The position numbers were made by a program, and so were the translations under genes. A model generated the notes under the pieces. That model had not been told where the DNA came from. It saw nothing but the letters and a program-made list of their open reading frames with translations, and made no database searches. Positions 42,520 to 50,150 of a stretch of DNA of 64,000 nucleotides are shown in pieces (position 1 is the stretch's first letter; each line of letters begins with the position of its first letter). The stretch lies in the NCBI RefSeq assembly GCF_053078305.1, contig NZ_CP166879.1; one strand, written 5' to 3'.

Positions 42520-44964
42520 TTACACCTTTTCAACCTGAACAAGGTTTGTATGTGACGGATTCCCCTTAGCGAGAGGAGACGGACGTTGAGTGGTCAGTAC
42601 GTTAATACAACCACCCTTATCGACACGTTTTGCATCCGGGTCATACCAGGCACCTTCACCCAGTGCGACCACACCCGGCATCATTCGTGGCGTCACTTTC
42701 GCCTCAATATGAACCTCACCACGATCGTTAAAGATCCTGACTTTATCGCCGTTGTGGATACCGCGTTTTTGGGCATCAAGCGGGTTGATCCACATTTCCT
42801 GACGGCAAGCCGCTTTCAGCACATCAACGTTGCCGTAAGTTGAGTGAACGCGAGATTTATAGTGGAAACCCGTAAGCTGCAGCGGATACTGTTTGTTCAG
42901 CGGATCCTGATAACTTTCAAAGCCCGGCGTGTAGATCGGCAGTGGATCGATCACATCGCCTTCTGGCAATTCCCAGGTAGCGGCAATGTCAGCCAGCGCC
43001 TGCGAATAAATCTCAATTTTGCCCGATGGCGTAGTCAGTGGGTTTGCCTGCGGATCTTCACGGAAGGCTTTATAAGCAACGTGATGCCCTTGTGGGTCGC
43101 GCTTTTTAAAGATCCCCTGCTTGCGGAACTCTTCAAACGTTGGCAGTTCAGGAATCGCTTCCCGCGACTGGGCATACAGATGCCGCATCCACTCTTCCTG
43201 TGTACGACCTTCAGTAAACTGTTGCTCAACGCCAAGACGTTTTGCCAGTTCGCTGGTCATCTCATAGATGGTCTTACATTCAAAGCGCGGTTTAATCACC
43301 TGATCGTTGAAAATCACGTAAGACATATTCCCGCAGGATGCATCCAGCGCAAAGTCCATCTGTTCGGAAGCGGTGCAGTCAGGCAGCAGGATGTCAGCAT
43401 ATTTCGCCGATGAAGTCATGTGGCAGTCGATAACCACAATCAGCTCGCACTTCTTATCATCCTGGAGGATTTCATGGGTACGGTTGATTTCAGAATGCTG
43501 GTTAATCAGGCAGTTACCGGCATAGTTCCAGATCATTTTGATCGGCACATCCAGCTTATCTTTCCCGCGCACACCATCACGCAGCGCCGTCATTTCCGGG
43601 CCACGTTCAATGGCATCGGTCCACATAAACATCGAAATGCTGGTCTGGATCGGGTTTTCCAAGGTCGGCATACGGACAAACGGTAAGCTGTATGAACCTT
43701 CACGCGCGCCGCTGTTCCCTCCATTAATACCAACGTTACCGGTCAGAATCGCCAGCATCGAGATAGCGCGAGTCGCGATTTCGCCGTTGGCGTGGCGCTG
43801 CGGCCCCCATCCCTGGCTGATAAACGCCGGTTTGGTACTGCCGATTTCACGAGCCAGTTTGATGATTTTGTCTGCCGGAACACCGGTGATTTGCGAGGCC
43901 CATTCCGGTGTTTTAGCCACGCCATCTGGCCCTTCACCCAGAATATAAGCTTTATAGTGGCCATTTTTCGGCGCACTGGCTGGCAGGGTTTTCTCGTCAT
44001 AGCCAACGCAATATTTATCGAGGAATGCCTGATCCACCAGGTTTTCGGTGATCATGACATACGCCAGACCGTTAACCAGTGCGGCATCTGTTCCTGGACG
44101 AATAGGGATCCACTCATCTTCGCGCCCGGCACCGGTGTCGGTATAGCGCGGATCGATGATGATCATGCGGGCATTAGATTTCTGGCGTGCCTGTTCAAGA
44201 TAGTAAGTCACCCCACCGCCACTCATTCGCGTTTCGCCAGGGTTATTACCAAACAGCACTACCAGCTTACTGTTTTCGATATCCGACGGGCTGTTGCCAT
44301 CTGCCCAGCCGCCGTAGGTATAGTTCAGACCTTCCGCAATTTGCGCGGAAGAGTAGTCACCGTAATGGTTCAGATAACCGCCGCAGCAGTTCATCAGCCG
44401 CGCGACCAGGGTATTTCCCGGCGGCCAGGAGCGGGTCATGGTGCCACCCAGCGTACCGGTGCCATAGTTAAGATAGATGGATTCGTTGCCGTACTCTTTG
44501 ATCAGGCGCTGCATATTGGTCGCGATGATGTCGTAGGCTTCTTCCCAGCTAATGCGCTCGAATTTGCCTTCACCGCGCGCCCCGACTCGTTTCATCGGAT
44601 ATTTCAGGCGGTCCGGATTATAGACACGGCGACGCATGGAACGCCCACGCAAACAGGCGCGAACCTGGTGCAGGCCGTCGTAATTGTCATCGCCGGTATT
44701 GTCCGTTTCGACATATTTGATTTCACCGTCCACGACGTGCATACGTAGCGGGCAGCGACTACCACAGTTAACTGTACAGGCGCTCCAGATAACCTTTTCG
44801 TCTGATTTTGTTGGAATGGCGCTATCGACAGCGTGCGCAATCCGACTAAAAGGTAATGTTAATGCGCTGCTGGCCATTGCCAGGCCGCCGATCGCTGTCG
44901 TTTTTACCAAACCACGGCGACTCACCTCAGCAGCCAATACCGCATCAGGGATTTTCGTTTTCAT
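42520..44964 (-). CDS. dmsA: DMSO reductase catalytic subunit (molybdopterin, Tat-exported)
   Basis: 814-aa ORF; twin-arginine signal (EVSRRGLVKT); molybdopterin oxidoreductase family. Confidence 0.97.
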   Translation of the reverse strand: MKTKIPDAVLAAEVSRRGLVKTTAIGGLAMASSALTLPFSRIAHAVDSAIPTKSDEKVIWSACTVNCGSRCPLRMHVVDGEIKYVETDNTGDDNYDGLHQVRACLRGRSMRRRVYNPDRLKYPMKRVGARGEGKFERISWEEAYDIIATNMQRLIKEYGNESIYLNYGTGTLGGTMTRSWPPGNTLVARLMNCCGGYLNHYGDYSSAQIAEGLNYTYGGWADGNSPSDIENSKLVVLFGNNPGETRMSGGGVTYYLEQARQKSNARMIIIDPRYTDTGAGREDEWIPIRPGTDAALVNGLAYVMITENLVDQAFLDKYCVGYDEKTLPASAPKNGHYKAYILGEGPDGVAKTPEWASQITGVPADKIIKLAREIGSTKPAFISQGWGPQRHANGEIATRAISMLAILTGNVGINGGNSGAREGSYSLPFVRMPTLENPIQTSISMFMWTDAIERGPEMTALRDGVRGKDKLDVPIKMIWNYAGNCLINQHSEINRTHEILQDDKKCELIVVIDCHMTSSAKYADILLPDCTASEQMDFALDASCGNMSYVIFNDQVIKPRFECKTIYEMTSELAKRLGVEQQFTEGRTQEEWMRHLYAQSREAIPELPTFEEFRKQGIFKKRDPQGHHVAYKAFREDPQANPLTTPSGKIEIYSQALADIAATWELPEGDVIDPLPIYTPGFESYQDPLNKQYPLQLTGFHYKSRVHSTYGNVDVLKAACRQEMWINPLDAQKRGIHNGDKVRIFNDRGEVHIEAKVTPRMMPGVVALGEGAWYDPDAKRVDKGGCINVLTTQRPSPLAKGNPSHTNLVQVEKV

Positions 44965-45134
44965 AATGGCTCACTCAAGCTTGCTCACGATTGATTCCAG
45001 TAACAAACCGTATTGTGTAATTATTTCTATAGCAGATCGCTATATAGGCTTGTATACATCGAATAATTTGAAAATCAAAGAGATAGGTAGATTTTCACTC
45101 GAAAGTAGTATTACGTGTAAGTGAGGAGTAATTA

Positions 45135-45148
45135 TTGTTCGGTATCAA
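45135..45148 (-). promoter_or_regulatory. FNR binding site of the dmsA promoter (TTGAT-accg-AACAA on the dmsA strand)
   Basis: Consensus FNR dyad ~175 bp upstream of the dmsA start codon; dmsABC is a classic FNR-activated operon. Confidence 0.7.
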
Positions 45149-45191
45149 AGGGAGACAAAAAAAGCGCCCGCAGGAGGTTTAACGCTACTTA

Positions 45192-45263: not shown

Positions 45264-46256
45264 CTAATCGATGGACAGTTTATGGACACTTTCAGCCAGC
45301 GGATTAAAGCTGATTGCATCCTGTAAAAAGTCCGGCGAAAAATGCGCATACGTCATCGTTTGTTGAATCGTGGCATGGCCCAGGATTCGTTGTAGCGTAA
45401 CGATATTTCCGCCATTCATCATGAAATGTGTAGCGAATGTATGACGCATGACATGGGTGGCCTGCCCTTTCGGTAAGTCCGGCTTCACCTCCTGAAGGAT
45501 CTCCCGAAATCTGAGGTAATCAGCCTGGTACAACAATCCGGTTCTGCGGGTTTTAATTAACGCAAGTACCGCATCAGAAACGGGAACGGCGCGAGATTTT
45601 CCGTTCTTGGTGTTAAAGAACATCACGCGGTTACCTACAATATGTTCCCCACGTAAACCAGCTGCTTCACCCCACCTTGCCCCCGTGGAAAGACACAGAA
45701 TGGCAACACGCCGCGCATCTCCATCGAGTCGTTCAAGCAGTCGTTCAATCTCCTCATCTGAAAGAAAGGCCATCTCTGTGTTCCTGACTTTCAGCTTACG
45801 TATTCCCCGAACCGGGTTTTCGTTATGGAACACCTCACCCTCAATCAGCGAGCTGAACATTGCAGACAAGGCACACAAATCGCGGTTAATGCTGGAAGGC
45901 ATTAACCCGGCCTGTAATTTGTCGGACCGGTACCCGAGCATAAATTTTCGCGTCATCTGACTGGCACGAGGATCACCCATCTCACGGTTTATCTTTTCCA
46001 GTCTGACCCTGTAGGTATCCCCGTAATCCTGGTTACGACCATCAAGCAACCACCAGGCCTCTATCAGTTCGGATAACCGACGCTGATCTGCTGGCTTAGC
46101 CTGCCATGGCTTATCATGAAAATTCTGCAAAACATACCTTTCAAACTCCTGCGCCTTTGACTTCAGGGTAAAAATCTTACGAATCCGCTTTCCTTCCGTC
46201 CCTTGTGGCCTTACATCAACCTTATAACGTCCGTCTTTGAGTTGCTTAATCGACAT
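45264..46256 (-). CDS. int: P2-type tyrosine integrase
   Basis: 330 aa from MSIKQLKDGRYKVDVRP; strong similarity to remembered P2 Int (LSTGARWGEAA, HxxRHTFATHF, ILGHATIQQTMTYAHF); ATG with GGAGGGG Shine-Dalgarno. Confidence 0.9.
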   Translation of the reverse strand: MSIKQLKDGRYKVDVRPQGTEGKRIRKIFTLKSKAQEFERYVLQNFHDKPWQAKPADQRRLSELIEAWWLLDGRNQDYGDTYRVRLEKINREMGDPRASQMTRKFMLGYRSDKLQAGLMPSSINRDLCALSAMFSSLIEGEVFHNENPVRGIRKLKVRNTEMAFLSDEEIERLLERLDGDARRVAILCLSTGARWGEAAGLRGEHIVGNRVMFFNTKNGKSRAVPVSDAVLALIKTRRTGLLYQADYLRFREILQEVKPDLPKGQATHVMRHTFATHFMMNGGNIVTLQRILGHATIQQTMTYAHFSPDFLQDAISFNPLAESVHKLSID

Positions 46257-46325: not shown

Positions 46326-46673
46326 TCAGCCAGCATTGCGGCCTGATCGGGATGATTTTTGGGTAACGTCGATTGAAGCCAGATCGCCCTCCGACTGAGA
46401 AGATCCATCAAGAGAGAGAGCCGGGGCAATTTGACCCCCAGCTTCAAACGTTTCATCAGTTGTTAACCAAAGTGCATATTTTTTAAAACGTAAATTTTTT
46501 GTGATCTTTAATAAGATCTCACTTCCGATTCCATCTTGCCTTCCCGTTTCGTAATACCTCTGCGTATTAACAGGAATCCCTGTAAGCTCAAAGAATTGCT
46601 TCCTTGTAAGCCTCTCACTTTTCCGGATCATCAAGATTTTTTCACCGATACTTATTGACAGTGTCGAATTCAT
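46326..46673 (-). CDS. P2 C-type immunity repressor (HTH)
   Basis: 115 aa from MNSTLSISIGEKILMIRKSERLTRKQ; resembles remembered P2 C (EKIVLMRKSEYLSRQQLADLTG, GQIAPAL); upstream of int on the same strand. Confidence 0.8.
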   Translation of the reverse strand: MNSTLSISIGEKILMIRKSERLTRKQFFELTGIPVNTQRYYETGRQDGIGSEILLKITKNLRFKKYALWLTTDETFEAGGQIAPALSLDGSSQSEGDLASIDVTQKSSRSGRNAG

Positions 46674-46774
46674 ACCACTAAAATCCTCGCAAAAGTGTCG
46701 TAATTTCGACATTAAACAAACCAAAACAAACCTTCATAAGGTGCAATAGGCGCACCTGTGCGAGAGGATAACAA

Positions 46775-47299
46775 ATGCGGGACTTCATTGCCGATAAAGA
46801 GTTATCTGACACCGATCACACAACTGGAGCGGCGTACATCAACGCCGATACCAGTCAACAAGAAGCAACAGATAACAACGACGAACAAAAGCCACAGCGC
46901 ACATATAAAAAAGGGGCAACCCTGCGGCTGGATGGCCCAATAGCCGGGCTTTGCTCACTTGAAAAAGGGGCCGCCTACATCGGATTAACAAAAACAGCAT
47001 TACGCGCAGCTCTCCAGCGTAACCAGATGCCAGGGCATAAAACCCGCTCAAACCCTGAAGATGAGAATTCGGATGGTGTTTGGTGGTTTAACGTCAGAGA
47101 GTGGGACAAGCTGGCCGACGAACTCCCGGAATGTGAGCCACCAGAATGGCACAACTGGAAAAGCTACTGGACATACGACCGCCAGAAAAGAAAGTTTACC
47201 CCGGCTGATAAGGAAGATTGCCAGACCGTCAATGGAAAACGGGTTTACAAAGGCAGAAAGTCAAAGCTGGAACAGAGCCAGGATGTAAACGAACGGTGA
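46775..47299 (+). CDS. Cox-like excisionase/early regulator with N- and C-terminal extensions; start uncertain
   Basis: The central segment ATLRLDGPI...AAYIGLTKTALRAAL...DGVWWFNVREWD aligns by eye with P2 Cox; first gene of the rightward early operon, divergent from C. Confidence 0.55.
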   Translation: MRDFIADKELSDTDHTTGAAYINADTSQQEATDNNDEQKPQRTYKKGATLRLDGPIAGLCSLEKGAAYIGLTKTALRAALQRNQMPGHKTRSNPEDENSDGVWWFNVREWDKLADELPECEPPEWHNWKSYWTYDRQKRKFTPADKEDCQTVNGKRVYKGRKSKLEQSQDVNER

Positions 47300-47305
47300 T
47301 GAACG

Positions 47306-47701
47306 ATGAGCGGCAAAAATAAGTCAGAAAAAAACACAACCGTCCTTAAGCAGTTAAGCCTCCTGAAAGAGGAACACAAGGACGCCACGATACTGATGCA
47401 TCTGGAAGGCTCACCGAAAATAACAATCACAACAACCTATAGCGAGTTACACAAAGAGCTTGAAGGATTAATTAACTTTTGTTCAAAGCTAAAAGCGAAT
47501 GAAAACATTGATGACCTGATACTTAAACCAGAAGCAGAGTTCGGGCACTTTTGCGAAAGTAGAGAAAATGGATGCATCGGAATAATGCTATACGCAACCC
47601 GCGGAATAATGATTAATCTGCCCGTTGAGCAGGCTGTGGATATATTCGGAGAAATGGCACTTAATAAAACCACTATTTACAAAAGAAAAATGCCGGAGTA
47701 A
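47306..47701 (+). CDS. Hypothetical phage early protein (lower-GC moron candidate)
   Basis: 131-aa ORF starting 7 nt after the cox-like stop; GC ~40% by hand count against ~55-60% in the rest of the prophage. Confidence 0.5.
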   Translation: MSGKNKSEKNTTVLKQLSLLKEEHKDATILMHLEGSPKITITTTYSELHKELEGLINFCSKLKANENIDDLILKPEAEFGHFCESRENGCIGIMLYATRGIMINLPVEQAVDIFGEMALNKTTIYKRKMPE

Positions 47702-47714
47702 CCCGGCATGGTTA

Positions 47715-47909
47715 TTAGTATGTTGGTCCCTTAGAAAAGTTCCAGGAACTCTTGCGAGGGTATTTATGAAGTACTTTTTCGCGGACATCGTTAGCCAGAT
47801 CTCTGATTTGATCGTGCTTATCATCAGAAGACGGAGGAACTTCGGGGATTTTATCCACGATTTCAATTACTGATTTAAGCATTTTTATTAATTCATCGTC
47901 GTAAGACAT
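47715..47909 (-). CDS. Hypothetical small protein, reverse-oriented inside the early operon
   Basis: 64 aa from MSYDDELIKMLKS with a perfect AGGAG Shine-Dalgarno 6 nt upstream; convergent with the 47306 gene; lower GC. Confidence 0.5.
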   Translation of the reverse strand: MSYDDELIKMLKSVIEIVDKIPEVPPSSDDKHDQIRDLANDVREKVLHKYPRKSSWNFSKGPTY

Positions 47910-49595: not shown

Positions 49596-50150
49596 ATGAG
49601 ACTTACACCAATGGGAATACCGGGCAAAGCCCCGGCACATGTGAAGGCGTGGACACAGCAGGAAGATCGGTTACTCATCTCGCTTTATCAGGAACACAAC
49701 ACACATCAGATGGCTGAACGAATTCAGCGAACCCGTAAAGCAGTTATGCACCGGATTCGTTTTTTACGTAATCGTGGGCTGATTGGCCGCAAGAGAAAAG
49801 CACCACTGAGTACAGAAGCCATAGCCTTTCTTATTAAAAACCGTCATGTAAAAACCGCACAGGAAATGGCTCTGGAAGTGGGATGTAGTGAGTGCACAGT
49901 GAGGTACACACTGCGTAAACGGGGTTACAACCTGAAAAAATGCGGTGAGAACCACCATTGCGCCAGATACAGCGATCATCTGGTTGAGCTGGTCACGGAG
50001 CTACGCGACATACACAACATGACGTTCTGCATGATCGCTGAACACATCAACAGCACGATACAGATGCACATTAACGACGATGCGGCGTTTCATCTCTACC
50101 ACCGCCGCACAGCGGCTGACGCCGCGCTCTGTGAACTGTTACCGGGCTGA
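49596..50150 (+). CDS. Putative DNA-binding early protein with two HTH-like segments
   Basis: 184-aa ORF with GGAGG Shine-Dalgarno; two helix-turn-helix-like stretches judged by eye; no family assigned. Confidence 0.5.
   Translation: MRLTPMGIPGKAPAHVKAWTQQEDRLLISLYQEHNTHQMAERIQRTRKAVMHRIRFLRNRGLIGRKRKAPLSTEAIAFLIKNRHVKTAQEMALEVGCSECTVRYTLRKRGYNLKKCGENHHCARYSDHLVELVTELRDIHNMTFCMIAEHINSTIQMHINDDAAFHLYHRRTAADAALCELLPG

Follow-up and report, generated by a model that had tools for sequence, protein, structure and literature searches.

A long-form cox gene in a P2-like prophage beside Escherichia coli dmsA, with conserved coding extensions at both ends

The open reading frame at 46775–47299 on the plus strand of the window (the whole 64,000-nucleotide stretch of contig NZ_CP166879.1 analyzed here) is very probably the cox gene of a P2-like (Peduoviridae) prophage beside E. 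coli dmsA, encoding 174 aa from the ATG at 46775. The frame, which appears as an ORF, in RefSeq, and in PHROG, comprises 174 codons and a TGA stop codon (47297–47299), and within a P2-type int-C-cox module adjoining dmsA no gene read rightward precedes it. A first-pass annotation of the same DNA had described a Cox-like gene of this extent, which is present as described, and had offered two alternatives for its length: an internal, non-canonical start or a Cox with extra domains. The evidence below supports the long form, in short a Cox with coding extensions. Such a long Cox is already known from RefSeq/PGAP, from PHROGs, and from a 2011 comparative paper, and the finding is in that sense an ordinary one. 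Nothing changes in the gene call itself; the value of the analysis is modest and lies in settling the doubt about the start codon by comparative evidence.

The surroundings of the gene follow the P2 plan. The host gene dmsA (42520–44964, minus strand) lies beside the prophage module, followed by a gene for a P2-type tyrosine integrase (45264–46256, minus strand; 330 aa from the PGAP start; Pfam Int_N and Phage_integrase) and one for a P2 C-type immunity repressor, a small helix-turn-helix (HTH) protein of 115 aa (46326–46673, minus strand; PHROG 147; same start in PGAP) that is 41% identical to P2 C (E = 6e-26). As in P2, cox heads the early operon, facing C and adjacent to int. The order int-C-cox is kept in six related loci that have int on the contig, while the seventh, at a contig end, has C-cox only. 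Variants of the same prophage at dmsA occur in UTI89, in ST131 strains, and as the induced phages vB_EcoM-705R2 and 569R5, each encoding a 173–174-aa protein annotated as Cox-family or transcriptional regulator. Between dmsA and the integrase gene there is also a full-length match to the Rfam enterobacterial sRNA STnc130 (45055–45189, plus strand; 122 bits, gathering score 55), which would place the prophage junction within ~75 bp, between the sRNA end and the int stop at 45264.

Existing resources describe the protein at its full length. In PGAP annotation of a 99.4% identical stretch of E. coli 04-00955, which has the same set of genes, it corresponds to WP_152659916.1, “Cox family DNA-binding protein”, a RefSeq protein ~99% identical to the window Cox, with the same start. 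Residues 1–170 match positions 1–169 of the 174-position profile of PHROG 23196 (E = 3.1e-95), a long Cox-like family labeled “transcriptional regulator”. Among 63 database homologs with E ≤ 1e-3, most intact ones are 166–192 aa long and cover 96–99% of the query, and homologs of this length come from five genera (E. coli/Escherichia, Shigella, Salmonella, Yersinia, and Serratia). Alignment of homologs, a check that the first-pass annotation had itself named, thus supports the long form, with both extensions conserved as coding sequence. Nei-Gojobori estimates, summed across eight long-class genes, give a dN/dS of 0.14 for the whole gene.

The Cox core occupies codons 49–134 (46919–47176, plus strand) and consists of a winged HTH followed by helices 3 and 4 with a PPEWHNW motif; in the family alignment the whole of P2 Cox (91 aa) corresponds to residues 49–128. 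Pfam PF10743 (Phage_Cox) matches residues 59–130 with 27.4 bits (E = 3e-6), 0.1 bit short of its gathering score of 27.5, and the precomputed Pfam entry of a 99%-identical protein (P0001) lists PF10743. By the same estimates, dN/dS is 0.06 in the winged HTH (residues 60–117) and 0.04 in the PPEWHNW region (residues 118–141). Direct searches connect the protein to P2 Cox weakly (BLASTP E = 0.022; hhalign probability 11%), and a PDB sequence search returned no Cox match either with the window protein or with a long-class-only profile. The link was therefore made through intermediate-length homologs and through the fold. BLASTP leads from the window protein to pro483-type Cox proteins of 118–129 aa (E = 4e-13) and from these to P2 Cox (E = 4e-10). 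An AF2 model built from 83 diverse sequences, in an alignment that included the P2 Cox sequence, reaches a pLDDT of 87–96 over approximately residues 50–120 and 65 for residues 121–130 (an earlier model from a shallow 32-sequence alignment had a mean pLDDT of 48.8 and was unusable). [quoted passage not shown]

Individual residues point to the same family. P86, W125, and W128 of the window protein align with P38, W81, and W84 of P2 Cox, which mutagenesis has shown to be needed for oligomerization or filament formation and for function (PMC3936717), and all three are invariant in 83/83 sequences; A18, G22, P45, W62, P74, and E76 of P2 Cox are conserved as well. Some ~15 residues of what the first-pass annotation took for a C-terminal tail are in fact Cox helices 3 and 4. 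Its sizes for the additions (~42 aa N-terminal and ~45 aa C-terminal) come close to the ~48 and ~40 aa found here, but residues ~118–134, with PPEWHNW, belong to the core. Judged from transitive homology, predicted fold, oligomerization residues, and synteny, the window protein is a member of the Cox family.

A different reading of these data is that a winged-HTH regulator of the Xis/AlpA/MerR-like superfamily has come to sit in the cox slot and is not functionally a Cox, for instance a transcription factor only, with another protein as directionality factor. The Pfam score just below threshold would be compatible with this, as would the failure of any NCBIfam model to match the window Cox, the acidic wing described below, the want of convincing Cox boxes on the att side, and the other excisionases and MarR-type folds that Foldseek lists at weak E-values. 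Against it stand 4LHF as sole fold match with E ≤ 1e-3, the invariance of the family-specific Trp pair and Pro, the transitive link to P2 Cox, and the synteny kept with a P2 C homolog and a P2-type Int; moreover, the neighboring ORFs scanned with Pfam and PHROG contain no other Xis-like gene. We consider this reading very unlikely and treat the protein as a Cox.

The window protein nonetheless departs from P2 Cox (PDB 4LHF, PF10743) in size and charge. It is 83 residues longer, with 48 residues added at the N terminus and 40 at the C terminus, and the shared core, although of the same winged-HTH fold with helices 3 and 4, is only ~20% identical. The wing arginine R51 (essential) and R73 and R78 of P2 Cox have been implicated in DNA contact. 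In place of R51 the window protein has the wing loop NPEDENSDG with a charge of −4 (−3 to −5 in the long class), and neither R73, K75, nor R78 is conserved: E121 and P123 stand at the positions of R73 and K75, and basic equivalents of R73 and R78 are absent. Intermediate-length proteins likewise have no R73/R78 equivalents; the R51/R73/R78 set is a feature of P2 Cox and not of the whole Pfam family. An acidic wing in place of an essential arginine suggests that the DNA-binding geometry may differ from that of P2 Cox.

A profile search returned 405 relatives, and among those listed the lengths fall at ~118–150 aa and 166–192 aa. The intermediate class (118–150 aa; pro483 gp03, Peduovirus P24E6b, and Arsenophonus pArsFIN13) resembles the window protein in having an N-terminal extension followed by a basic patch, an AP-x-EWH-x-WK motif, and a short basic C-terminal tail. 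Its N-terminal extensions are shorter, however (~24–34 aa, net charge ~−2), and lack the MxxFIADKELSD peptide; the conserved ~40-aa tail is missing as well, and the wing loop is near-neutral (mean net charge ~−1). Since this class too carries an N-terminal extension and a basic tail, P2 Cox is not the norm, and this best-studied Cox, at 91 aa, marks the short end of a continuum that runs through ~118–150 aa to ~166–192 aa. Long-class proteins combine an acidic wing with a basic patch before the core and a basic tail (~+8), a correlation that is descriptive only, as the sequences are phylogenetically related. This rearrangement of charge suggests that the filament and DNA-wrapping model of P2 may not transfer unchanged to the long class.

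Known counterparts of the window gene are the long Cox of PhiECO5 (UTI89, WP_001204238.1) and its ST131/vB_EcoM-705R2 relatives, which share the dmsA site, the int-C-cox order, a length of 173–175 aa, the architecture, and, for the PhiECO5-type protein, the annotation “Cox family DNA-binding protein” given to the window homolog. The window protein is 74% identical to the ST131/vB_EcoM-705R2-type Cox, a figure that holds for this type and not for the UTI89 protein itself. The two groups differ in linker sequence, in part of the downstream early genes, and in immunity type, with C proteins 53% identical and other operators. The UTI89 prophage is the PhiECO5 analyzed by Nilsson et al. 2011 (PMC3448106), who give it a new immunity class (IX) and comment that one Cox group “was larger” than the P2 group. 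A functional analogy for what the tail could do can also be drawn with lambda Xis (in part from PMC3936717), which has a winged-HTH core, a flexible C-terminal tail, and filaments on direct repeats; it differs from Cox in having no role as a switch repressor and in a tail that is not basic or conserved in the same way, and there is no detectable sequence relation.

The start of the gene, which had been called uncertain, is the ATG at 46775 that PGAP also uses. Upstream, an in-frame TAA at 46769, two codons 5′ of this ATG, closes the frame. Downstream, no in-frame ATG, GTG, or TTG occurs between codons 2 and 84 of the window cox; the next is Met85, which sits in the HTH, in the recognition-helix region of the DNA-binding fold. 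A Shine-Dalgarno sequence GAGGA (46764–46768, plus strand) lies 6 nt before the ATG and is of the same type as in P2. It forms part of a block, GAGGATAAC-AAATG (Shine-Dalgarno, spacer, and start), that is unchanged in 8/8 divergent loci, while the operator DNA around it is no longer recognizably similar. Between the −10 of the candidate early promoter Pe and the ATG there are 91 nt, close to the 93 nt of P2. Across ten loci spanning ~31–86% protein identity, the 42–68 codons of frame 1 ahead of the DGP motif contain no stops (10/10 loci), whereas the same stretch is interrupted in frame 3 in 9/10 loci and in frame 2 in 5/10; a search of the ten loci for a conserved internal in-frame start codon found none, and two loci have no in-frame internal start codon at all. 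The closed frame, the invariant Shine-Dalgarno block, the spacing from Pe, the open frame 1, and the conserved N-terminal peptide described below together place the start at 46775, and an internal non-canonical start is ruled out by TAA 46769, the want of a start codon before codon 85, and the invariant Shine-Dalgarno and ATG.

A short, P2-sized Cox read from an internal non-canonical codon, with 46775–46918 as a 5′ leader or regulatory DNA that is open by accident, could draw on the fast evolution of the linker (dN/dS 0.47 overall, ~1 in close pairs), on the reduced synonymous change in codons 1–12, and on the overlap of these codons with the sole minus-strand promoter-like site, so that conservation there could be at the DNA level, but is extremely improbable against the invariant ribosome-binding block, the missing start codons, a frame 1 that stays open despite indels while the other two do not, and an N-terminal peptide kept even at 37–42% overall identity.

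Read from ATG 46775, the N-terminal extension relative to P2 Cox is ~48 aa long and, as the first-pass annotation had noted, acidic (net charge −7 over residues 1–41). It begins with a conserved peptide, MRDFIADKELSD (codons 1–12; 46775–46810, plus strand), found in nearly all intact homologs. Its consensus, M-R/Q-x-x-I-A-D-K-E-L-S-D, varies at the R/Q position (M-x-x-x-I-A-D-K-E-L-S-D) across Escherichia, Shigella, Salmonella, Yersinia, and Serratia and is still recognizable in relatives of 37–42% identity; M1, A6, L10, and S11 are invariant among 32 sequences, and dN/dS over residues 1–12 is 0.39. Synonymous divergence is low in codons 1–12 (pS 0.34 vs ~0.7 elsewhere in the eight long-class genes), which suggests an overlapping nucleotide-level signal. 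Over 46764–46810, nucleotide conservation exceeds what the protein requires, and there are two candidate causes, a hairpin and a minus-strand promoter-like site. The candidate hairpin would pair GGAUAAC at the Shine-Dalgarno with GUUAUCU in codons 9–11. The minimum-free-energy fold contains it (z = −1.9); folding of the alignment reaches no more than −2.4 kcal/mol, with one compensatory pair. A hairpin that sequesters the Shine-Dalgarno is not established.

Codons 13–41 (46811–46897, plus strand) encode an acidic, variable linker that is rich in indels and predicted to be disordered. Its dN/dS is 0.47, all indels among homologs are in frame, and past the 12-residue motif the N-terminal part of the AF2 model falls below a pLDDT of 50. 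With frame and composition kept, sequence free, and many in-frame indels, the linker behaves like a disordered spacer. A basic patch, RTYKKGA (codons 42–48; 46898–46918, plus strand), follows directly before the first strand; patch and first strand together (residues 42–59) have a dN/dS of 0.21, and K46 is invariant among the 32 sequences. The ten residues preceding the core carry a charge of +4 to +6 in most long-class members shown, and −1 to +2 in a Salmonella subgroup of 173 aa.

The basic C-terminal tail (codons 135–174, DRQKRKF...GKRVYKGRKSKLEQ; 47177–47296, plus strand) is specific to the long class and extends ~40 aa past the end of P2 Cox, with 12 K+R and a net charge of +5. R136, F141, K146, C149, and R161 are invariant among the 32 sequences, and dN/dS over residues 142–166 is 0.10; going by these substitution patterns, the tail is constrained as much as a folded or binding segment. 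AF2 predicts a β-hairpin at residues 149–158 and a helix at 164–173 (pLDDT ~71–78). In tblastn searches of phage sequences, the N-terminal extension alone and the tail alone each found matches only in the long-Cox family, and we thus have no evidence of a module shared with other proteins. The suggestion of extra domains therefore goes too far: the N terminus consists of a 12-residue motif and a linker predicted to be disordered, and at the other end only residues 135–174 are a true addition.

The first-pass annotation also proposed promoter and operator mapping in 46674–46900; in and around this interval the sequence offers a candidate Pe, candidate operators, and repeats, but no convincing Pc at the position expected from P2. 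The candidate Pe (46655–46684, plus strand; TTGACA, 18 nt, TAAAAT) matches 11/12 consensus positions, its TTGAC is invariant in 8/8 loci, and its −35 overlaps the start of C, as that of the annotated P2 Pe does. Flanking its −10 are candidate C-repressor operators (46662–46711), made up of a half-site TGTCGAAT (46662–46669) and a palindrome TGTCGTAATTTCGACA (46696–46711). In the 8-locus alignment this inverted repeat changes with repressor type. Each type has its putative half-site in the Pe spacer and its palindrome just past the −10 (L004, L005, L009–L012, and L015; alignment A3), and the putative operator sequence reads TGTCGAA in the window and GATAACC in ST131; the S1-CAM and Yersinia types have TTCACC. 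Operators exactly as in the window recur in a prophage of Serratia marcescens, whose C protein is 77% identical, which suggests one immunity type common to the two genera.

Two tandem 10-bp direct repeats, TAAACAAACC and AAAACAAACC (46713–46732, plus strand), are candidate Cox-binding sites; their position is kept across long-Cox loci while the operators differ. A weight matrix of these switch repeats gave three matches in the dmsA-int gap of the window and none on the att side of four other loci. Without enrichment in related loci, Cox boxes at the att side are not supported. A search for a convincing sigma-70 match for Pc at the P2-equivalent position found none. On the minus strand, the sole promoter-like site (TCGGCA-18-TATCCT, 8/12, plus an extended TG) overlaps cox codons 1–7 and the Shine-Dalgarno, and this site could be Pc.

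All activities of the window protein we infer, in large measure by analogy with P2 Cox. In the switch region between Pe and Pc it would bind direct repeats and keep the promoter of the repressor gene repressed. Its homology and position further predict a role as recombination directionality factor of the neighboring integrase, and for both tasks it would, like P2 Cox, form oligomers on DNA by way of helix 4 with its conserved Trp residues. DNA-backbone contacts that have been lost from the wing and helices 3/4 probably come instead from the basic patch and tail. Alternatively, these two segments may bind Int in the manner of the lambda Xis tail. The acidic N-terminal arm could moderate such contacts, or its conserved tip may dock a partner.

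A more speculative extension, which we regard as rather unlikely, is that the additions of the long class (a conserved N-terminal peptide on an acidic disordered arm, and a conserved basic tail matched by an acidic wing) make up a regulatory module that P2 Cox lacks, acting as an autoinhibitory arm or a dosage degron. In the autoinhibitory form, the acidic arm would cover the basic tail, which binds DNA or Int in this model, until the N-terminal peptide is engaged by a partner such as a host factor, Int, or the C repressor; in the degron form, the module would set Cox dosage. If real, it would give phages with a classically non-inducible C-type repressor a lytic or excision switch that responds to a signal.

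The cox-proximal genes vary among otherwise similar prophages, and those 3′ of cox in the window differ from the P2 orf78/B genes. After cox comes a 131-aa ORF (47306–47701, plus strand) that matched nothing in Pfam, PHROG, or NCBIfam, then a small ORF that PGAP calls hypothetical (47715–47909, minus strand); DUF4761 and DUF4754 genes and a Myb/HTH DNA-binding protein (49596–50150) lie further 3′. Eight window ORFs scanned against Pfam gave no match to PF25738 (“Derepression”), and proteins of this family are found in the early regions of Yersinia and Salmonella long-Cox prophages (L010 6309–6540 and L012 5301–5576). Finally, a metagenomic relative (L013 1495–2896) has four tandem HTH_3-type repressor-like genes, instead of one, between int and a 161-aa long Cox.
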